A stretch of DNA of 38,321 nucleotides from positions 1-38,321 of the forward strand of contig JAJRDA010000001.1 of assembly GCA_028678665.1 (NCBI GenBank), given 5' to 3'. The position numbers and the translations under genes are program-made. The notes beneath the pieces are model-generated. The model did not search any database and was not told the origin of the DNA. It saw nothing but the letters and a program-made list of their open reading frames with translations. The DNA is from Methanomicrobiales archaeon (GTDB lineage Archaea; Halobacteriota; Methanomicrobia; Methanomicrobiales; JACTUA01). Shown here one piece after another: positions 2,166 to 32,113 of the stretch; position 1 is the stretch's first letter; each line of letters opens with the position of its first letter.

Positions 2166-5100
2166 GTGGTCGAGATGATACTCTCACGCCTGTGCTGTAT
2201 CCTGGCAGCCCTGGTACTGCTCACCAGTGCCGGAACAGCGCTTCAACTGGACATCGCGGGCGAGAAGGAGTGGCTGGTGGCCGGCGGAGACACCGCCGGG
2301 CTCAGCCTGGTGATCAGCGGAGGGAGCAGCCCCTTCACCATCACCGCGACAGTCCCCCCTGATGGCCTGTGCACAGTGACCCCCGCCTCATTCACCACCT
2401 CCTCCATTCGACCCGACCCGATGCAGGTCAAGAGCAAGGAGAAGAGTGGCGTCTGCCTGATTGACATCAAGGTAACCGATGCGGGTGGTAATTCCGTCAC
2501 CCAGCAGTTCTCGCAGAAGATCGACCACACCACACCGGGGTATGCGGGCGGAATCGCACCCCAGGGAGCCACCGTAGGCACCGTTGTTCCGGTGAAGGTA
2601 TGGCTCCAGGACCGGTACCATAACATCGTGGATAACCGGAATATCGTCGAGACGGTGGGTTTCACCACCTATGGCAGTTCCGGTTTTGTGGACGGCCCCT
2701 CCACAAATCCAGACCTCATGGTGCAGACGACCACAGCACCGGTGAATATGGATGGAGTTGTGGAAATCCAGTACTATGTGGGAGAATATGTCTCCAAAAA
2801 CTATATCACCTTCACACCTCCCGCCCCTCTGGTGCCCGGTATCCTGATCCTCGATGGGATCCCGAATGGGGTGCCAGCCTCTATAGTCACCTATATTGTC
2901 CCCGATGCCGCCACACCCCCCTGGGTGTATGCGGATGGGAGCAGCAAATTCACCATCACCTACTCGGTCTCTGACACCAACGGATTTCCTGTCCAGGCGG
3001 CCGGGATCACGGGTTTCACCAGCGAGGGGAAGTCCTTCTCGCTTGTGACGAATGAGAACGGCCAGGCCAGCTACTACTACGGTCCCTTCTCCATGGCAGG
3101 GCAGCACACCATCACCGCTTCGCTGGATGCGAACTCCGCCGTGCGGGTGGTCGACCGGGTGGAGATCATCTCCATGGCGCCGGAACACCTGCTGGCCACG
3201 GGAAATCCCATCTCCATGCCCAGCCTTGATGTCAGCCCCGGCAGCACCTCCACCATCACAGGCAGGGTCAGTGACCCCAAGGGGAACCCGGTCTCCGGCC
3301 AGACGGTGACCTTCGAGATCACATCCGTTACCGCATCCACGAAAATGAAGAAGGATCCCTACCTCACCAGCCAGGGGAAGATCTACGCCGAGAAGAAGTC
3401 GGTGACCCTGGTCACAAACAACGACGGGATTGCCACCCTGCAGTTCATTCCGGGCGAGTTTGCGAAATCCAGGACGGATCCGGACTTTGACCCCTCGGCT
3501 GAAGGCACGGCCACCATCACGGCCACCTGGGGGTCCAAGACCGAGCCGATCACGCTCACCTTCAAGCGGACAGCCTACCTCTCCCTGGAGACCAAGGTCG
3601 AGCCCCTCCAGGTGCCGGTGGGAGGGACCTTTGATGTCACGGTGAACGTGACGGGGGACGGGTCGATGATGACCAGTTACCCCATCGAAGTGATGCTCGT
3701 CACCGACCGTTCCGGTTCCATGGAAATGAGCATGGGTGGACAGACCCGGTTCTACTGGGTGAAGCAGGCGTCGCATGCCTTCCTGGATGCCCTGAACCCG
3801 GGGAAGGACAGGGTGGGGCTCGTCTCCTACCACACCTGGGCCACCAAGGATCACGACCTCACCTCGGACTTCACCAGCCTGGGGACCACCATTGACACGC
3901 TGACGATACCCCGTGCCAACGACTGGATTCCCAACAAGGGCCCGGTGCGGCTCACGAACATGCGGGACGGGATCTTCAATGCCACCACCTACCTGAAGAT
4001 CTATGGCAGCAAGAGTGACAAGGTCAACAAGGCCATCGTGGTCCTCACTGATGGCGTCTGGAACTGGGGTGGCACCCCCCTGGCCAAAGGGAGGGGCTAT
4101 GCCGAGAAAACCCGCACGGTCGTCTGGGAAGACACCTACTTCGGGGCCAACTGCGCGTCAGGGTCGGCATGCCTCCAGAAGTATCGCACAGACAGTTTCT
4201 ACTGGCCGGGCGCCGTGTCCTTCTCCATGTACACCTACTACAACCAGGAGCTGTACAAGGATCCACAGGGCAACCCCGTCATGACGGATCCCGGCCCGCT
4301 GGCCTACAGCGGGGCAGGGCTTGGCCCGGCACACCGGTTCGACGGGCGGGATGGGAGCAACGGCTACCTCTGTCATCCCATCGTCCCCCTGAATAAGGAC
4401 CCGGGAGGACCGGCGTGGGACCCCAATATGTGCGTCAAGAATACCGGCATGTGCAACAGCGACATCGGATGCTATAGCAACGATAAATACCGGGTGGACG
4501 TCTGTGATAAAACCTATACCGGCACGGATTGCTCATCTTCCGAGCAGAACATGGCTGTCTTTGCCAAGAACAACCACATCCGGATCTATACCATCACCTA
4601 TGCAGAGAACTATGACCAGAATACCTTTGATGCGCCCTACAAGGACGTCGCGGCAGCCCTGACGGAACTCTCCGAGTCCACCGGTGGCAAGTACTACCAT
4701 GCGGCCACCGGAGCTGATCTGGAGAAGGTGTATGAGGACATCGCCGCCGACCTGATCACCTCCGCCGGCGTGGATACCGACGTCATGGCTGAATATGATA
4801 CCAAGTTCGCCAACCTCCTGCCAGGAGGATCGAAAGATAAAAAGGGATCAGAGGTCTTCGAGTACGTCGCCTCGGGGCCCGTTCCCGCTATCTCGACCGT
4901 GACCTGGAAGTGGGACAAGGCCAAGAAGCTGATCGAGGGTCCCACCTGGAAGAGCCAGCAACCCGAATGGAACATGAACCACCAGCTCTCGTACGACATC
5001 GGGTCCATCGAGATCGGGCAGAAGTGGTCGATGAAATACCGGATGCAGGCGAAGCAGGCAGGCACCTACGATGTCTTCGGGAGCGGATCCCTGCTCCAGT

Positions 5101-26024: not shown

Positions 26025-26363
26025 TCACCCGGTTTGCACCGATGGTGCCCGCTGCCGGAACCTCAGGACCACGAGCAGGGCGACGACGGACATCGGGAGC
26101 GCGATCACCAGCAGGTCGATGACGTTCCAGGGGTAGCCCAGGAGTGCAGGTGTCCCGAAGAGGAGCTGCGAGAGACCGATCACGGATGATTCCGCCCTGT
26201 GGACAAAGGCCGTCCAGAGGAACCAGACCACGGCCCCCGTGAGCAGGCTCACCGTCGCCGCCGTGAGCCCCGCCGCTTCGATGACCCGTGCGCACTCCTG
26301 GAGGACCTGCATCGTGTTGCCCTGGATCCGCGGGCTCCCCGAGAGGAGGAGGACCCGGTTCAT
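26025..26363 (-). CDS. Small hypothetical membrane protein; its N-terminal about 33 aa look like the start of a flavodoxin-like NAD(P)H-dependent FMN reductase (chimeric or remnant ORF)
   Basis: MNRVLLLSGSPRIQGNTMQVLQECARVIEAAG is the typical SGSPRxxGNT N-terminus. It is followed directly by hydrophobic segments (LLTGAVVWFLWTAF and VIDLLVIALPMSVVALLVVL). The start ATG overlaps the upstream stop (ATGA). Confidence 0.45.
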   Translation of the reverse strand: MNRVLLLSGSPRIQGNTMQVLQECARVIEAAGLTAATVSLLTGAVVWFLWTAFVHRAESSVIGLSQLLFGTPALLGYPWNVIDLLVIALPMSVVALLVVLRFRQRAPSVQTG

Positions 26364-27541
26364 CCTTTGCCCCCCTCCAGCCGGACCAGCCGGTAGGTGC
26401 GGGATCCCATGCCCAGGTGCTCGGCATAGCGGAGCTGCTGCTCCCCGTCGGTATGGGGCCAGATCCCCCGGAACTTGTCCCCGCCCCTGTCATGGCCATG
26501 GCGGAGGAGGGTCCGGGGGAGACCGATCCCGCTGTTCACGAGATCCAGGCTCGCGGCATCGATGGCCACCGGGTCGGTGGAGGCGAGGATGCCGATGTCG
26601 GGGACGATGGGGGCATCGCTCCAGGGAACGCAGTCGCAGTCCGGCGTGACGGAGAGGAGGAGGTTGTAGAACCCGATCCTCCCCTTCTTGCCCTGGAATG
26701 CCCCCAGGGCATACTCCATCATCCGCTCGATGAAGGGCGGCAGGTCCACCTCCCAGTCAAACTCGAGGGTTCCATCCGGGCAGACGGTCATGCATTCCCC
26801 GCACCCGATGCACCGGTCCCGGTCCACCGCCATCGTCCCAGCGGTGAGCGAGAGGGCTCCCGACGGGCAGACCGCGATACAGGTGCCGCACCCCTGGCAC
26901 TCCGCCTCCGCCGCCATGGCCTTTGCCGCGTGCATCTCCCGCTTCCCGGCGGCCGGTGCACACCCCATGGCCAGGTTCTTGAGGGCCCCGCCGAAGCCGG
27001 TGAGATTATGGCCCTTGTAGTGGGAGATGACGATCATGCTGTCGGCCGCGGCGATGTCACCGGCCACGAGGACCCGGGAGAAGTGCCTTCCCTGCACCGG
27101 CACCTCCACGACATGGGTGGAGCGCAGGCCGTCGGCGATGATCACCGGTGCCCCTGCCACCGAGTAGTCAAAGCCGTGGAGAACGGCAGTGGTGAGGTGG
27201 TCCACCGCGTTGCTCCGGCTCCCCGAGTACAGGGTGGCGGTATCGGTGAGGAAGGGACGGCCTCCTGCCTCACGGATCCGGTCCACGACAGCCCGCACCA
27301 GTACCGGGCTCACGAACGTGTCCATCCCCCGCTCCCCGAAATGCAGCTTCACCGCGGTCAGGTCCCGTTCCCGGATGAGCTGCGGGAACCCGGCCTCGGA
27401 GAAGAGCCGGCGCAACCGGGTCACCTTGTTCTCTGCCTCGCTCCGTGCCCTGAGATCCGAGAAGAATACCTCTGCCACCACGGGAACCCCACCTGTCTCT
27501 TCCGCAGCCGGAACACTCTCTCCGGTATGGGATATAATCAT
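26360..27541 (-). CDS. DUF362-domain protein with inserted 2x[4Fe-4S] ferredoxin-type domain
   Basis: VFFSDLRA...VKLHFGE...FLTDTATLYSGSRSNAVDHL...VIIADG is the DUF362 core. The two ferredoxin motifs are CQGCGTCIAVCP and CIGCGECMTVCP. The start is taken at ATG 27541, though GTG codons about 60 nt downstream are also possible. The upstream 117 codons of the listed ORF run through the ORB and AT-rich intergenic DNA. Confidence 0.8.
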   Translation of the reverse strand: MIISHTGESVPAAEETGGVPVVAEVFFSDLRARSEAENKVTRLRRLFSEAGFPQLIRERDLTAVKLHFGERGMDTFVSPVLVRAVVDRIREAGGRPFLTDTATLYSGSRSNAVDHLTTAVLHGFDYSVAGAPVIIADGLRSTHVVEVPVQGRHFSRVLVAGDIAAADSMIVISHYKGHNLTGFGGALKNLAMGCAPAAGKREMHAAKAMAAEAECQGCGTCIAVCPSGALSLTAGTMAVDRDRCIGCGECMTVCPDGTLEFDWEVDLPPFIERMMEYALGAFQGKKGRIGFYNLLLSVTPDCDCVPWSDAPIVPDIGILASTDPVAIDAASLDLVNSGIGLPRTLLRHGHDRGGDKFRGIWPHTDGEQQLRYAEHLGMGSRTYRLVRLEGGKG

Positions 27542-27567
27542 CTCTCCCGGAGAGTTTCTGCACGGTC

Positions 27568-27584
27568 TTCCAGAGGAACCAGGG
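27568..27584 (+). promoter_or_regulatory. Degenerate ORB-like box
   Basis: TTCCAGAGGAACCAGGG compares with the cdc6-proximal TTCCAGTGGAAGCCAGGGGGT. Confidence 0.35.
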
Positions 27585-27715
27585 CCGCCTGGGGCCCGGT
27601 GCCCTGGAATCTCTGACCGGAATGGAGGGATGGGAAGGATACGCCCGCCGATGTCACCGCTTCGTCCGGGGATTCCTGCGTGCCCCGTGCAGGGAACCGG
27701 GAGCATTGCATGCCC

Positions 27716-27736
27716 CTCCAGTGGAAACAAAGGGGT
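27716..27736 (+). promoter_or_regulatory. Origin recognition box (ORB), full length with G-string
   Basis: CTCCAGTGGAAACAAAGGGGT has the dyad TCCAGTGGA and a GGGGT string, matching the archaeal Orc1/Cdc6 ORB consensus. Confidence 0.8.
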
Positions 27737-27998
27737 GGAAGCGGCTTTTTCCCAGATCAGTATATAAATATATCGGTAATCCGATGCCGCCTGAACCGGG
27801 GAATTTTGCGTTTTTTCCAGGGAATCTCCCCGCTTATCAGTTCCTGCCCGCATCCTCCTGCGGAGCGGGCCGCCCCCGCCATCCTTCACCACCCGGGCCC
27901 GCAGGGAAATTGCCCCCCCCGCATCCCACCCCGGTCCCGAGGGCAGAGAAATATTGTACCTGCGTGCCCTGTACGCGAAACCCGCGAGCGTCCATGCC

Positions 27999-28019
27999 CT
28001 CCAGTGGAAATAAAGGGGT
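27999..28019 (+). promoter_or_regulatory. Origin recognition box (ORB), full length with G-string
   Basis: CTCCAGTGGAAATAAAGGGGT is 20/21 identical to 27716-27736 and in the same orientation. Confidence 0.8.
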
Positions 28020-28057
28020 TTTCGGGGTTTTTTCTCTGCCCGACATATAAACCTTCC

Positions 28058-28075
28058 GTTTAATAAAAAATGATG
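28058..28075 (-). terminator. Possible oligo-T terminator of the cdc6-lrp-aminotransferase operon
   Basis: The minus strand reads ATCATCATTTTTTATTAAACGG about 40 nt after the aminotransferase stop. Confidence 0.4.
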
Positions 28076-28108
28076 ATTATTGGTGGAAAAGTGGTTTTCT
28101 GCGCCAGT

Positions 28109-29275
28109 TCATGCCTGCTTCAGGCCGGAGAGGAATTCGCCGATCCGCTGCAGCGCCCGGCCCAGGTCCTCCCGGGAGACCGCGTAGGCGCACCGGAGGT
28201 GACCGGTGCCGGAGGCCCCGAAGACCGAGCCCGGGACCACCGCCACCCGCTGCTCCGTGAGGAGGCCCTCGGCAAACTCCTGGTCCGAGAGGCCGGTGGA
28301 GGCCACCGACGGGAATGCATAGAAGGCCCCCCGGGGCACGTGGCAGGTGAGGCCCAGCCGGTTCAGGCCTTCCACAAAGTAGTTCCGGCGGACGCGGTAC
28401 TCCCGCACCATCCGGTTCTTGTCCTCCTCCGCGTTCTTCAGGGCTTCCACTGCAGCCAGCTGGCCCATGGTGGGGGCACAGAGCATCACGTACTGGTGGA
28501 TCTTCAGGGCCAGGTCACAGAGGGGCTGTGGAGCGCAGAGATAGCCTACCCGCCAGCCGGTCATGGAGTAGGCCTTGGAGAACCCGTTCAGGGTGATGGT
28601 CCGCTCACGCAGGCCATCCACGGAGGCCACCGCCACGTGGCGGCTCTCATAGGTCAGCTCCGCGTAGACCTCGTCGCTGATCACCAGCAGGTCGTGGTCC
28701 TGCACCACGTCTGCCACCGCCCGCCACTCCTCCCGTTCCATCACGGCACCCGTGGGATTGTTGGGGAAGTTGGCGACCAGGACCCGGGTCCTGGGGGTCA
28801 CCCTCTCCATCATCACATCGGCCGTGAGCCGGAATTCCTCCTTCTCAGGGCACGGCACAGGCACCGGGACCCCGCCGGCCAGGGTGACGCAGGGGGCGTA
28901 GGAGACGTAGCAGGGTTCTGCCACCAGTACCTCGTCCCCCGGGTCCACGACGGCCCGGAGGGCGATATCCTGCGCTTCGGAGACGCCGGTAGTGATCAGG
29001 ATCTCCGTCTCCGGGTCATAGGGAGTGCCATAGCGCCGCTCCAGGTCCCGGCTCACCGCCTGGCAGAGCGCCGGGAGGCCCCGGTTGGAGGTGTAGGAGG
29101 TGTGACCCTGCTCGATGGCATAGATCCCGGCCATCGAGACATTCCAGGGCGTGTTGAAGTCGGGCTCCCCCACCCCCAGGGAGATCACGTCCTCCATCTC
29201 CTGGAGGAGGTCAAAGAATTTCCGGATCCCTGACGGCGGAATCTCCTGTGCACGCCGTGAGCCGAATTGCCGCAT
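28109..29275 (-). CDS. Class I/II PLP-dependent aminotransferase (aspartate/aromatic aminotransferase-like)
   Basis: PPSGIRKFFDL, ISLGVGEPDF, YTSNRG, VISDEVYAEL, and the PLP-lysine region LNGFSKAYSMTGWRVGY are present. ATG 29275 is preceded by the SD-like GGGTGGA. Confidence 0.85.
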   Translation of the reverse strand: MRQFGSRRAQEIPPSGIRKFFDLLQEMEDVISLGVGEPDFNTPWNVSMAGIYAIEQGHTSYTSNRGLPALCQAVSRDLERRYGTPYDPETEILITTGVSEAQDIALRAVVDPGDEVLVAEPCYVSYAPCVTLAGGVPVPVPCPEKEEFRLTADVMMERVTPRTRVLVANFPNNPTGAVMEREEWRAVADVVQDHDLLVISDEVYAELTYESRHVAVASVDGLRERTITLNGFSKAYSMTGWRVGYLCAPQPLCDLALKIHQYVMLCAPTMGQLAAVEALKNAEEDKNRMVREYRVRRNYFVEGLNRLGLTCHVPRGAFYAFPSVASTGLSDQEFAEGLLTEQRVAVVPGSVFGASGTGHLRCAYAVSREDLGRALQRIGEFLSGLKQA

Positions 29276-29288
29276 CGCGTTTCCACCC

Positions 29289-29780
29289 CTAGAAGGAGAA
29301 GGGCAGGCGCTCCGCACCCTCTCGCTCGACAAAGAGGGTGCCGTTCTCCTTGTAGATCTTCATGATCAGGTGGGTGGCCGTCTCCCGGATGTGGTCCATG
29401 GGAGCGATCTGCTCGGAGACGAACCGGGCCACCTCCTGCATGGTCCTCCCGGCCACCAGGAGCTGGAGATCGTACATGCCGGTGACGAGGCGGAGGGCCC
29501 TGACCTGGTGGAAACGGGCGATCCGCTCGGCGATCCGCTCGTAGCCGAAGTCCCGCTCCGGGGTCACCTTCAGGTCGATGATGGCGAGCACCTCCCCGTT
29601 CCCTGCCCGCTCCCAGTCCACCACCGTGGAGTAGCCCCGGATGATCCGCGCGTCCTCCATCCCCGCTATCCGTGCCCTCACATCGTCCTCGGAGAGCTCC
29701 GTCATCGTGGCCAGATCAGCGGTCGGGATCCTGCTGTTCTCCTCCAGGAGCTGCAGGATCTGGAGGTCCTTCTCGTCCAT
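29289..29780 (-). CDS. Lrp/AsnC-family transcriptional regulator
   Basis: MDEKDLQILQLLEENSRIPTADLATMTELSEDDVRARI is the HTH_AsnC region, followed by a RAM/ACT-like C-terminal domain. Confidence 0.85.
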   Translation of the reverse strand: MDEKDLQILQLLEENSRIPTADLATMTELSEDDVRARIAGMEDARIIRGYSTVVDWERAGNGEVLAIIDLKVTPERDFGYERIAERIARFHQVRALRLVTGMYDLQLLVAGRTMQEVARFVSEQIAPMDHIRETATHLIMKIYKENGTLFVEREGAERLPFSF

Positions 29781-29784
29781 GGGA

Positions 29785-31065
29785 TCACCGGAAGATTGTC
29801 TTCAACCGGTTGGCATCCATCCGCTTCAAGGTTTCCTGCTCCAGGCGCTGGTCCTTCGCGAGCGTCTCCCAGATCCGCTGGGTTGTCGTGTCGAACCACA
29901 TCTCCTTGGTCCTGCCGTACCGCCCCTTGGAGACGACGCGGGTGTTGATGACCCCCAGCATGTTCAGCTCGGAGACGAGGTCCGTGATCCGCCGGTTGGT
30001 GAGGATGTCCAGGGAGAGGTCCTTCGCCACCTCCCGGTACACGTTCAGCACCTCGCCGCTCGTGAAGAGCTTCTTGCCGTTCTGGTCCAGGACCAGCATG
30101 GAATAGAGTACCACCTTGGACTGGGTGGGCAGGGTGGAGACGCACTCGATCATGCTGTCCGTATCGATCTTCTCCTGTGCCTGCCGGACATGCTTCTCGG
30201 TTACCCGCTCGGTGTTCTCCCGCTCGGCCAGTTCGCCGGAGACCCGCAGGAGGTCCAGCGCCCGCCGTGCGTCCCCGTGCTCGGTGGCTGCGAGGGCAGC
30301 GCAGACGGGGATGACGTTCTCCTCCAGCACCCCTTCGTTGAAGGCTGCCTGGGCCCGCTGGGTCAGGATATCGGTCAGCTGGTGGGCGTTGTAGGGGGGA
30401 AAGACGATCTCCTCCTCCGAGAGGGACGAGAGGACGCGGGGGTCCAGGAAGTCGGTGAACCGGAGGTCATTGGAGATCCCGATGATGGCCACCTTGGCAA
30501 TTCGGAGGTCCGAGTTGATCCGGGTCAGGTTGTACAGGGTCTCGTCCCCGCTCTTCTTCACCAGCTTGTCGATCTCGTCCAGGACGATCACCATGACGCC
30601 GCCGATGGTGTCCAGATGGTTCTTCAGCTCCATGTACACCTGGTCCGTGGGCCAGCCGGTGAAGGGGATGTTGGTGCGCTGGCTGTCGCTGGGCCGCTCG
30701 TCATGCCCCTCCAGGGTCTTTGCGATCTGGGCGAGCACCCGGTACTGGGTGTCGATCACCTCGCAGTTCAGGTGGATGACGTGGCAGGGGATGGACGTCT
30801 CCCGGCTGGCATTCTCCAGCTCCGCCCCCACGTACCGGACGCAGGCGGTCTTCCCTGTACCGGTCTTCCCGTAGATCAGGATATTAGATGGGGTCTCGCC
30901 CTTCAGGGATGCGGCAAGGATGGAGGCTACCCCCTCTATCTCCGGCTCGCGGTGGGGGAGCACCTGGGGGCGGTAGGAGTGGCGGAGCACCTCGCGGTTC
31001 CTGAAGATATTTTTATTGCCCAGGTACTTCTTGAAGAGGCCCATGGACGTGGTGTCTTCTTCCAT
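29785..31065 (-). CDS. cdc6: Orc1/Cdc6 replication initiator
   Basis: Walker A is ILIYGKTGTGKTA and Walker B is VIVLDEID. Sensor regions and a C-terminal winged helix are present. YRPQVLPHREPEI is the typical N-terminal block. The start is taken at ATG 31065 (31044 is also possible). The listed ATG at 31137 sits inside the TATA box. Confidence 0.9.
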   Translation of the reverse strand: MEEDTTSMGLFKKYLGNKNIFRNREVLRHSYRPQVLPHREPEIEGVASILAASLKGETPSNILIYGKTGTGKTACVRYVGAELENASRETSIPCHVIHLNCEVIDTQYRVLAQIAKTLEGHDERPSDSQRTNIPFTGWPTDQVYMELKNHLDTIGGVMVIVLDEIDKLVKKSGDETLYNLTRINSDLRIAKVAIIGISNDLRFTDFLDPRVLSSLSEEEIVFPPYNAHQLTDILTQRAQAAFNEGVLEENVIPVCAALAATEHGDARRALDLLRVSGELAERENTERVTEKHVRQAQEKIDTDSMIECVSTLPTQSKVVLYSMLVLDQNGKKLFTSGEVLNVYREVAKDLSLDILTNRRITDLVSELNMLGVINTRVVSKGRYGRTKEMWFDTTTQRIWETLAKDQRLEQETLKRMDANRLKTIFR

Positions 31066-31136
31066 CGAGTGCACTCCGAAGGATTGGTGCCGGTCATATC
31101 GGACCGTCCGATGATAAACACATCGATCTGAGCCCA

Positions 31137-31144
31137 TTTATAAC
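31137..31144 (-). promoter_or_regulatory. Probable TATA box of cdc6, abutting an ORB
   Basis: The minus strand reads ...GCCAGGGGGTTATAAATGGG. TTATAAAT lies about 70 nt upstream of ATG 31065. Confidence 0.5.
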
Positions 31145-31164
31145 CCCCTGGCTTCCACTGGAAT
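31143..31164 (-). promoter_or_regulatory. Origin recognition box (ORB) with G-string, inverted relative to the 27.7/28.0 kb boxes
   Basis: The reverse complement reads ATTCCAGTGGAAGCCAGGGGGT. Confidence 0.75.
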
Positions 31165-31364
31165 CTCTGGGATATTGCGTTATTAATGCGAATATTCCAA
31201 TATATTTGCCCCTTTCCACGGTCGGTTTCCACCGGGTGTGTCCCTTCGGGAATGCACCCTGCAGGGGATTTATCCGGGATGCGGAATCTTCCCTCCGGAC
31301 CGAGGATAAGAATTTCAGCCCCGGAAGCCTGCGCAGGGATCCCAGACCCCACCCACCCCATGGT

Positions 31365-31376
31365 TTCCAGTGGAAC
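31365..31376 (+). promoter_or_regulatory. Mini-ORB
   Basis: TTCCAGTGGAAC has the same dyad as the full ORBs but no G-string. Confidence 0.55.
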
Positions 31377-31615
31377 CGGAAAACTATTTCCTTGGTGGAA
31401 ATTCCCTCAGTGAAAACAGCCGGTGGTATTTCTCCCTTTCAAACTATAAAAATGATATGAAACAATGCGGGAAGAAAATCCACATGCAGCAGGAATCGGA
31501 GGGACACCTCCCCGGAGACCTGCAATGGAAGCCATGGGGTCCCCCATGCCAGTCCCGATTACAGGCCGGGCACCACCTTTAAACAGTCATTGGGAGAACA
31601 TACTTCCTGATCTGC

Positions 31616-32113
31616 ATGCACCCCCCCCATATCCGGGACATGGTGGTCACCGCAGCGGTAATCACGGTCTCTACCACGAGGACCCCGGAGACCGATGAAA
31701 GCGGGAAGGCCATCCAGGACCTCCTGGCAGGGGCCGGGATCGAAGTCACCTATTATGCCCTGGTGCCGGACCGCATTCCCCTGATCCGCACCGCACTCCT
31801 CACCGCGCTGGAGCATGCCGGCTGTGTCATCCTCACGGGGGGGACCGGTCTCACCCCGGACGACTGCACCATCGAGGCGGTCCGACCACTCCTGGAGAAG
31901 ACCATGGACGGGTTCGGGGAGCTCTTCCGCTGGAAATCCTTCCAGGAGATCGGGACCTCGGCCTACCTCTCACGGGCTCTCGCCGGGATCATGGATGGCA
32001 AGGCGGTCTTCTGCCTGCCGGGATCGCTTCCCGCGGTGACCCTGGCCACCCGGGACCTGATCCTGCCTGAGATCCGGCATATCCTGAGCCATAGCTCCCT
32101 CTCCCATCCCTGA
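31616..32113 (+). CDS. moaB: Molybdenum cofactor biosynthesis protein B (MoaB/MogA family)
   Basis: AAVITVSTTRTPETDESGKAI, VILTGGTGLTPDD, and GKAVFCLPGS are the family blocks. An alternative start is ATG 31640. Confidence 0.85.
   Translation: MHPPHIRDMVVTAAVITVSTTRTPETDESGKAIQDLLAGAGIEVTYYALVPDRIPLIRTALLTALEHAGCVILTGGTGLTPDDCTIEAVRPLLEKTMDGFGELFRWKSFQEIGTSAYLSRALAGIMDGKAVFCLPGSLPAVTLATRDLILPEIRHILSHSSLSHP

Follow-up and report, generated by a model that had tools for sequence, protein, structure and literature searches.

Does a second group of initiator-binding sites near an archaeal cdc6 gene mark a second place of replication initiation, or does it serve another end? The question is raised by the gap at 27542-28108 in a 38,321-nucleotide stretch of DNA from a Methanomicrobiales archaeon (contig JAJRDA010000001.1; the whole stretch is called the window below). 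This gap lies between two - strand genes, for a DUF362/4Fe-4S protein and a class I/II aminotransferase, and holds two origin recognition boxes (ORBs) at some distance from cdc6/orc1, the gene of the Orc1/Cdc6 initiator. A preliminary description had proposed a second origin, the distal half of one extended origin, or Orc1-controlled promoters. In this study, the cluster is read, with confidence evenly poised, as an accessory, non-initiating Orc1/Cdc6-binding array at the far end of the cdc6-lrp-aminotransferase unit, in which the ORBs would serve as operators. Among the three earlier options, Orc1-controlled promoters gave the best fit, and the + strand direction proposed for them was not supported.

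To our knowledge, the control of archaeal replication initiation is poorly understood outside a few haloarchaea and the Sulfolobales, and full-text literature searches returned nothing specific on the origins of Methanomicrobiales. In haloarchaea, ORBs have been recorded on both sides of orc1/cdc6 (PMC3528665), and downstream ORBs are described at many haloarchaeal origins (PMC3936714, PMC3528665, PMC4010727). Moreover, ORBs lie on both sides of orc1/cdc6 in Ca. Methanomethylophilus alvus, and Methanomassiliicoccales have ORB pairs flanking orc1/cdc6 plus isolated ORBs elsewhere; the archaeal ORB consensus is given as CTTCCAGTGGAAACGAAAGGGGT (PMC4153887).

Results

Two full ORBs in a tandem module

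ORB1, the copy nearest the aminotransferase gene, and ORB2 (Table 1) each consisted of a dyad of the form TCCA-N-TGGAAA and a G-string, and both fitted the pattern CTCCAGTGGAAAYAAAGGGGT exactly; ORB1 was the exact consensus, with the dyad TCCAGTGGAAA and the G-string GGGGT. As first described, they were two near-identical full ORBs in one orientation, 283 bp apart, and the coordinates and sequences were exact. When the 21-mer was searched with up to 3 mismatches, only these two sites were found in the window, against a chance expectation of 0.01, and none of 100 shuffles gave two matches. Furthermore, when 181 distinct ORBs from related loci were compiled into a weight matrix, it returned only five sites of at least 8 bits in the 38 kb and none in Markov-shuffled copies of the window. 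These five were ORB1, ORB2 and the three ORBs of the cdc6-adjacent gap 31138-31615, all sharing the same motif, so that the existence of a second cluster of real ORBs, distinct from the cdc6-proximal set, was borne out.

Each ORB was embedded in a repeat of about 95 nt, which confirmed the long repeat reported earlier and extended its length beyond the 60 nt then given. The repeat ran from CCTGCGTGCCC (27675 and 27959), 40 nt ahead of each ORB, through ATATAAA, which began 46 nt after the first ORB base in both copies (27762-27768 and 28045-28051), as had been observed. Over the aligned 150 nt, modules 1 and 2 (those of ORB1 and ORB2) were identical in about 75% of the columns. On the - strand the boxes read TTTATATG and TTTATATA, both close to TTTAWATA, and in both modules exactly 24 nt separated the box 8-mer from the base opposite the last ORB base. 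Outside the modules, the dyad-side block CCTGCGTGCCCYGTRC did not recur in the window beyond chance.

The inter-module sequence was not conserved even among the closest relatives, in which ORBs, boxes, dyad-side block and the stretch around 27800-27833 were all kept. In three relatives (L001, L002 and L170), the ORB1 position likewise lay 112-117 nt past the aminotransferase stop, and the module 1 box read GTTATATA or ATTAAATA, directly preceded by ATG or AAGG. The dyad-side block of module 1 was nearly invariant in the window, L001 and L002 and mostly kept in L170. The block 27800-27833 was largely kept in four genomes, with an invariant T6, and scored below 0 bits as an ORB.

The weaker ORB-like words reported at 27568, 27602 and 27815 did not withstand the full matrix, on which all scored below 0 bits. 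The word at 27568-27579 had a marginal score of 10.3 bits on a dyad-only matrix and was moderately conserved in relatives, its counterpart in L002 being TTCCACCGGAAA. The 12-mer CTGGAATCTCTG, said to be shared with the flank of the cdc6-proximal ORB, was indeed present at 27604-27615 and 31158-31169, and its first site was unconserved in relatives; by a rough estimate, the chance of any 12-mer common to both gaps is a few per cent.

In a larger family of relatives (L003-L009, L088-L175), a palindrome CCGGAT-N6-ATCCGG stood beside most ORBs, 25-45 nt away on the dyad side, and the window's family had CCTGCGTGCCCYGTRC in its place. This could be the site of a second protein, such as the Lrp-type regulator whose gene belongs to the cdc6 unit.

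Conservation across Methanomicrobiales

The gap was compared with 80 Methanomicrobiales loci (L001-L080) retrieved with the cdc6 protein. The nearest relatives were uncultured Methanomicrobiales metagenome-assembled genomes with a cdc6 identity of 93-94%, followed by a second group at about 81% and by Methanoculleus at about 75%. Peat and wetland samples were the source of L004-L009 and L151-L175. The 1 kb past the aminotransferase gene was scanned for ORBs at thresholds of at least 15 bits in genome loci and at least 10 bits in metagenome contigs. In the window's clade, 1-5 ORBs were found in 9 of 9 scorable genome loci and in 16 metagenome contigs (several near-identical), with at least two wherever the flank measured at least 350 nt, giving arrays of 2 to 5. 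Every ORB of these 25 scorable loci and contigs was oriented as the two of the window. They followed one another at regular intervals, 274-283 bp in the window's subgroup and about 180 bp in the larger one. The preliminary description had held that the module idea would fail if the repeat were absent from this position in relatives; the ORB, T run and TATA box recurred syntenically as one unit in all examined relatives of the window's clade.

Outside this clade, ORBs followed the aminotransferase gene in all 34 scorable Methanoculleus-like loci, 29 of which had a - strand ORB at about +130 and a + strand ORB at about +329, and the ORB nearest the aminotransferase gene was conserved out to Methanoculleus. 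No ORB was found in this place in any of 28 scorable Methanoregulaceae-like loci. The cluster was followed by DUF362 in the window's clade and by another open reading frame (ORF) in the four Methanoculleus-like loci checked, with a seemingly adenylosuccinate-synthetase-like N-terminus by our own reading rather than by a domain search. Each of these two genes has a close TATA box of its own, and in one lineage the DUF362 gene was truncated with the ORB cluster intact. Because the downstream gene differs and has its own promoter, we assign the cluster to the cdc6 unit rather than to the gene that follows.

In several loci with larger arrays (L004-L009, L088, L136, L137, L151, L152, L157 and L175), the last ORB was a variant with the dyad TCCACAGGAAA (TTCCACAGGAAATAATGGGGT), located about 590-915 nt past the aminotransferase stop and about 200 nt upstream of DUF362, and had no TATA box.

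Coupling of the ORBs to a TATA-like box

In ten genomes, a TATA-like 8-mer lay 19-29 nt beyond the G-string in 19 of the 20 ORB copies classed as standing clear of the aminotransferase stop, the sole exception being a stop-adjacent copy misclassified through a truncated aminotransferase alignment. Such a box was found at the mirror position on the dyad side of none of the 20, beside none of 5 copies abutting the aminotransferase stop, and beside 6 of 14 primary-origin ORBs (Fisher p = 3e-10 and 0.001 for the comparisons). With the metagenome data included, 32 distinct modules had this coupling. In the high-GC metagenome contigs of the window's clade, among the matches listed, an ORB-plus-box with an identifiable neighbour always lay beside the aminotransferase or the DUF362 gene. 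Most modules carried a T run between ORB and box, and both the T run and the TATA box were missing from most stop-abutting copies. Since the T run and the TATA box are mostly present or absent together, one promoter fits better than a terminator beside an unrelated promoter.

Direction of the predicted promoters

On balance, the boxes seem to face the - strand, the direction of all flanking genes, and the following features lend this reading a modest advantage. The - strand boxes TTTATATG and TTTATATA resemble the clade's cdc6 and DUF362 promoters (GGGGTTTATATG and GAGGATTTATGA). Immediately upstream of the box, the - strand of the larger family carried at least 9 nt of unbroken purines (GAAAGAAGAAAG); a purine-rich B recognition element (BRE) was clear in that family and in module 1 (GGAAGG) and weak in module 2 (CGATATA). 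In the arrays of 17 loci, T runs of at least 5 numbered 13 on the - strand and 34 on the opposite strand. Transcripts from the - strand boxes would probably start at 27736 and 28019 (each +/- 2), at the edge of the ORB, which would span about +1 to +21; the T6 run beside ORB1 forms an A-run at about -14 to -9 of this putative promoter.

The earlier expectation of + strand transcripts with starts some 25 nt past the boxes fared less well. A + strand start about 24 nt past the module 2 box, near 27792, would meet the T6 run 27811-27816 about 20 nt later in the four aligned genomes, and one from module 1, near 28075, would meet the T4 run 28094-28097 at about 20 nt; the - strand gives canonical boxes and places the ORB at the start. 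Assigning the direction from TATA polarity alone was also attempted and failed for the larger family, in which the boxes are nearly symmetric.

The origin beside cdc6

By its layout, the cdc6-proximal gap is a complete classical origin, and this holds in all clades. Upstream of cdc6, most loci had - strand ORBs, an AT-rich element and + strand ORBs, with the G-strings facing outward; from this layout of two - strand and two + strand ORBs follows a local rule, namely that the ORBs turn their dyad side toward the unwinding element. The AT-rich stretch of the window at 31376-31519 (144 bp) had a GC content of 0.46, with 0.225 in its lowest 40-nt window.

The downstream cluster was built otherwise, and the reported departure from the classic layout of inverted ORBs and unwinding element was confirmed. 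Both ORBs were on the + strand, and no inverted partner scoring at least 0 bits on the full matrix was found in the gap. The dyad-side flanks had a GC content of 0.61-0.63, and an AT-rich unwinding element was found neither there nor between the ORBs, where the one window of GC 0.30 was the TATA stretch of module 2 itself. The main AT-rich stretch lay on the G-string side of ORB1 and consisted of the aminotransferase terminator and the module 1 TATA box. In addition, the cluster was not directly adjacent to the initiator gene, since the lrp and aminotransferase genes intervene and the cdc6 start is about 3.1 kb away. In the Methanoculleus-like loci, the pair of the second cluster enclosed about 200 bp with a GC content of 0.55 (lowest 40-nt window 0.41), compared with 0.50 (lowest 40-nt window 0.26) at the primary origin of the same loci.

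In the window (31136-31163) and in loci L043-L071, about 70 nt before cdc6, the cdc6 TATA box touched the G-string of the nearest ORB (GGGGTTTATATG in the Methanolinea-like loci). In such an arrangement, the ORB overlaps the BRE position of the cdc6 promoter, which is probably a layout for autoregulation. A palindromic dyad-like word, TTCCGCTGGAAA, with 13.2 bits on the dyad-only matrix, was also found in the window at 31925-31936, within the MoCF gene about 300 bp from the origin.

Gene order and extent of the gap

The features of the locus are collected in Table 1. Beyond cdc6 and its adjacent gap lie a + strand MoCF-domain gene and then a Hel308-type helicase gene, and the order Hel308/MoCF/gap/cdc6/lrp/aminotransferase was kept in all of the 80 loci whose sequence reaches far enough. 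In all 80 loci, the genes for cdc6, the Lrp/AsnC regulator and the class I/II aminotransferase were adjacent on the same strand, a few nt apart; across the sampled Methanomicrobiales, the initiator gene is thereby kept next to genes of amino-acid metabolism. The T6 run at 28065-28070 was the sole - strand T run of at least 5 in the gap, and a T5 or T6 occupied its position in L001, L002 and L170.

Table 1. Coordinates of genes, ORBs, boxes and other features in the window
Feature	Position	Strand	Remark
DUF362/4Fe-4S protein gene	26360-27541	-	extent as ORF
TATA box of the DUF362 gene, ATTATATC	27531-27538	-	kept in four genomes; not a module part
Palindromic dyad-only word, TTCCAGAGGAAC / TTCCTCTGGAAG	27568-27579	.	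candidate mini-ORB, about 29 nt from the DUF362 TATA box
Dyad-side block, module 2 (CCTGCGTGCCCCGTGCAGGGAACCGGGAGC...CATGCCCC)	27675-27715	+	
ORB2, CTCCAGTGGAAACAAAGGGGT	27716-27736	+	33.9 bits; conserved in L002, L083, L170
T5 run between ORB2 and box	27746-27750	+	
TATA-like box, module 2, TTTATATA	27761-27768	-	invariant in the window, L002, L170, L083
Conserved block GGAATTTTGCGTTTTTTCCAGGGAATCTCCCC with T6 run 27811-27816	27800-27833	+	contains the word reported at 27815
Dyad-side block, module 1 (CCTGCGTGCCCTGTACGCGAAACCCG...CATGCCC)	27959-27998	+	common to module 2
ORB1, CTCCAGTGGAAATAAAGGGGT	27999-28019	+	38.2 bits, top ORB of the window
T6 run between ORB1 and box	28028-28033	+	occurs in relatives too
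TATA-like box, module 1, TTTATATG (CATATAAA on + strand)	28044-28051	-	GGAAGG upstream at 28052-28057
T6 run, probable cdc6-lrp-aminotransferase terminator	28065-28070	-	39 nt after the aminotransferase stop
Class I/II aminotransferase gene	28109-29332	-	
Lrp/AsnC regulator gene (lrp)	29289-29780	-	upstream of the aminotransferase gene
cdc6/orc1	29785-31137	-	Pfam Cdc6_lid and Cdc6_C
cdc6-proximal ORB	31143-31163	-	28.8 bits; G-string abuts the cdc6 TATA box GGGGGTTATAAAT
Second primary-origin ORB	31355-31375	-	26.8 bits
Weak inverted primary-origin ORB, TGCAATGGAAGCCATGGGGT	31520-31540	+	13.7 bits

The gap had been described as 567 bp between co-directional genes, of which the co-direction held and the length is probably too short. 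The ATG at 27541 that opens the DUF362 ORF was not conserved, reading AGG, TGG or AGA in relatives, and the gap is for this reason probably somewhat longer; DUF362 homologues start a few residues ahead of VFF(A/S)(G/D)LRAR. The true start is likely the GTG at 27481, which would make the non-coding gap about 627 bp. The boxes equivalent to the DUF362 TATA box in L004-L009 were ATTTATGA, GTTTAATA, ATTTATTG and GTTTATTG, about 70 nt before the conserved (V)FF(A/S)(G/D)LRAR codons and 50-60 nt before the nearest start codon. In L002 (about 3990-4100; also in L106, L127 and L182), the DUF362 gene ends after about 30 codons with unrelated sequence beyond, and L002 still keeps the ORB array, the promoter and the 5' end of the gene.

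Several candidate products of the gap were tried and rejected. A conserved structure of the putative leader 27738-27478 found no support in RNAalifold on four genomes, where the covariation term was unfavourable (+4.88) and only three pairs were kept through changes on both sides, and no known RNA family was found by Rfam in 27300-28300 on both strands at E up to 1. The 57-aa - strand ORF 27538-27711 differed from L002 mostly by non-synonymous changes; the ORF from the ATG at 27995 lost its frame through indels in L001 and L002; and the ATG after the ORB in the larger family was not always present and opened unconserved peptides. The 387-aa + strand ORF 28070-29233 was an antisense shadow of the aminotransferase gene with an unconserved start. 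A scan for bacterial-type promoters and terminators, uninformative for an archaeon, gave no promoter and one chance-level hairpin.

Discussion

In the explanation favoured here, the array consists of tandem copies of one module that would be read on the - strand of the window in the order purine tract, TATA box (TTTATATG or TTTATATA), 24 nt with an A-run, ORB and GC-rich block, the short purine tract being a feature of each array's first module and of the larger family of relatives. Archaeal repressors usually bind near the transcription start, downstream of the TATA box, and block the recruitment of RNA polymerase. Because the ORBs would take this very position, bound initiator would be expected to shut the promoters, and free ORBs would permit transcription through the array toward DUF362. 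Moreover, if occupied by Orc1, the whole array would draw initiator off the origin, which lies 3 kb upstream, as has been proposed for the haloarchaeal cluster oriC2D. A further step, namely that the ORBs are operators of a tandem promoter array through which occupancy is read out as transcription that in turn strips or resets the initiator, appears improbable. If true, however, it would amount to a transcription-coupled initiator buffer, with no described archaeal counterpart.

Several observations weigh against this explanation. The TATA boxes are nearly symmetric, and the polarity score was 8 for the - strand and 9 for the + strand in the larger family, and 10 to 9 once the window's family was included. 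An ORB upstream of an outward-reading TATA box does exist, at the MoCF promoter of L003-L009 (about 26-29 nt beyond the G-string), and a second example was the gene of a beta-helix protein in a different lineage. The - strand model has no terminator after the modules, so its transcripts lack a defined end or product. In addition, the Methanoculleus-like cluster lacks the TATA coupling, and for this reason the promoter part is lineage-specific and cannot explain the wider conservation of the cluster. Only two ORBs lie in 567 bp, compared with 11 in 722 bp at oriC2D, which makes the titration capacity small. Finally, many of the compared loci are related, so the counts given above are not independent events.

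The opposite direction of transcription was considered unlikely, and it is the likeliest of the alternatives. The boxes would be + strand promoters firing away from each ORB, with Orc1 acting upstream as an activator or anti-activator and with short RNAs as products, that of module 1 being antisense to the 3' end of the aminotransferase-lrp-cdc6 message. The geometry of ORB G-string, 14-30 nt, TATA box and gene is real at the MoCF promoter, orthologues of the beta-helix gene that are only 50% identical retain the ORB and the box, and the + strand T runs past each ORB could terminate such units. However, the T6 and T4 runs met by the + strand starts would leave RNAs of only about 20-25 nt, the bases ahead of the boxes on that strand vary and are not rich in purines, and the boxes read ATATAAA or ATATATAC there, whereas the clade's confirmed promoters read TTTAT.... 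Furthermore, most stop-abutting ORB copies lack the T run that would be needed as a terminator. A second origin, or the distal part of one extended origin spanning the cdc6 unit, was regarded as doubtful, still less probable than + strand promoters; here, bound Orc1 would load MCM and the AT-rich terminator and TATA stretch beside ORB1 would melt. It draws on the full-consensus ORBs, which outscore those of the cdc6-proximal origin, on the 89 bp from ORB1 to the stop (GC 0.38), whose lowest 40-nt window of 0.225 equals that of the primary unwinding element, and on the Methanoculleus-like cluster, an inverted pair about 200 bp apart with the - strand ORB before the + strand ORB, as at the primary origin. 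Against it, the window's clade has 2-5 direct repeats with no inverted partner in 25 of 25 scorable loci and contigs, every primary origin of these genomes carries its AT-rich element on the dyad side, the present one being on the G-string side, and the Methanoculleus pair encloses no unwinding element. The cdc6-proximal gap already offers a complete classical origin, and the analogous haloarchaeal cluster is reported to lack activity as an autonomously replicating sequence (ARS) (PMC3936714). The two origin proposals of the preliminary description thus appear unlikely in view of the shared orientation, the GC-rich dyad flanks and the complete origin nearby; as a practical warning, the strongest ORBs of a genome need not mark its origin.

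Two further explanations were given little weight. The ORBs might be mere operators for DUF362, with no role in replication control, which we consider quite improbable. In its favour, DUF362 is preceded by ORB2 and by the candidate mini-ORB at 27568, and the 250 nt from ORB2 to the gene are about 80% conserved in four genomes, far above the inter-module stretch. However, DUF362 has its own conserved TATA box 50-60 nt before the start, the last ORB of the array lies 240-530 nt further upstream, the leader shows no conserved RNA structure (unfavourable covariation, no Rfam match), and the cluster stays in place where the next gene differs or DUF362 is truncated. Least credible of all, and very improbable in our view, is the idea that a duplicated origin or an integrated element left the cluster behind as a functionless remnant. 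The tandem duplicate modules, which vary from 2 to 5 copies between relatives, would suit such a remnant, but the ORB cores, their orientation, spacing and coupling are kept at about 81% cdc6 identity with the inter-module sequence scrambled, and the ORB nearest the aminotransferase gene is retained as far as Methanoculleus.

The closest precedent for an accessory array is oriC2D of Haloarcula hispanica, a cluster of 11 ORBs in 722 bp directly downstream of cdc6E. It is reported to have no ARS activity, can be deleted only together with or after oriC2, and lowers the activity of oriC2, probably by titration of Cdc6E (PMC3936714; Wu et al. 2014). Both are separate clusters of full ORBs downstream of the cognate initiator gene, on its far side from the true origin, both are not origin-like in build, and both are proposed to act by binding the cognate Cdc6. 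Unlike oriC2D, which directly follows cdc6E, the present cluster is set 3 kb away, beyond lrp and the aminotransferase gene, and it lacks the high ORB density, the gap holding 2 within 567 bp and the relatives at most 5 over about 900 bp. oriC2D is backed by genetics, whereas the cluster of the window is known from its sequence. What is new beside the oriC2D kind is the strict co-orientation, the even spacing and the fixed link to a promoter-like box; no such coupling is mentioned in the available part of the haloarchaeal report (PMC3936714).

With a classical archaeal origin the cluster shares the ORB consensus and the cdc6 neighbourhood, and it differs in its direct rather than inverted ORBs, in having no dyad-side unwinding element and in the presence of the true origin 3 kb away. 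The likeness to known start-site operators of archaea is one of geometry, the ORB beginning at the predicted start, 24 nt after the TATA box. At the cdc6 promoter (31143-31163, GGGGGTTATAAAT), the ORB G-string also faces the TATA box; there, however, the box touches the G-string and reads away from it, whereas the module boxes stand 24 nt off and most likely read toward the ORB. The datA locus of Escherichia coli is a DnaA-titrating cluster of boxes, and the likeness is functional only, in that high-affinity initiator sites outside the origin would lower initiator availability; the domain of life, the initiator and the mechanism differ, with no homology. The same analogy is drawn in the haloarchaeal study (PMC3936714). 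Regarding transcription, Orc1-2 of the Sulfolobales, reportedly a non-initiator paralogue that recognises a short motif unlike the ORB, offers a precedent for Orc1/Cdc6 paralogues regulating promoters. Orc1/Cdc6 paralogues of the Sulfolobales are described as acting as transcription factors (PMC6061795). In the present case, by contrast, the initiator's own full ORB would be used beside its own gene cluster, an operator role suggested by geometry alone.

The locus is a conserved, precisely defined and testable object, an array of 2 to 5 copies that is absent from the sister family, and is of moderate interest for the field of archaeal replication control. Should the ORBs prove to be operators, a full origin box would give the main initiator a second role as transcription factor, and if the array titrates the initiator, the haloarchaeal model would extend to methanogens.

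ORB-plus-box arrangements also occurred away from this locus. In L190 (5960-6030; also in L143, L086, L085 and L096), at a GC content of 0.45-0.56, a single perfect ORB TTTCCACTGGAAATAAAGGGGT stood 14-30 nt upstream of TTAACTATAAAAG, and no cdc6 homologue was found (tblastn, E <1e-8) within up to 4-12 kb on the longer contigs. This ORB may be a promoter element away from any origin, and, if true, the isolated ORB-plus-promoter would point to a wider Orc1 regulon on full ORBs. An ATG followed about 21-25 nt past the box and, on the three contigs that reach far, opened the gene of a 677-aa beta-helix protein with a hydrophobic N-terminus, the 50% identical orthologues of which keep both the ORB and the box.

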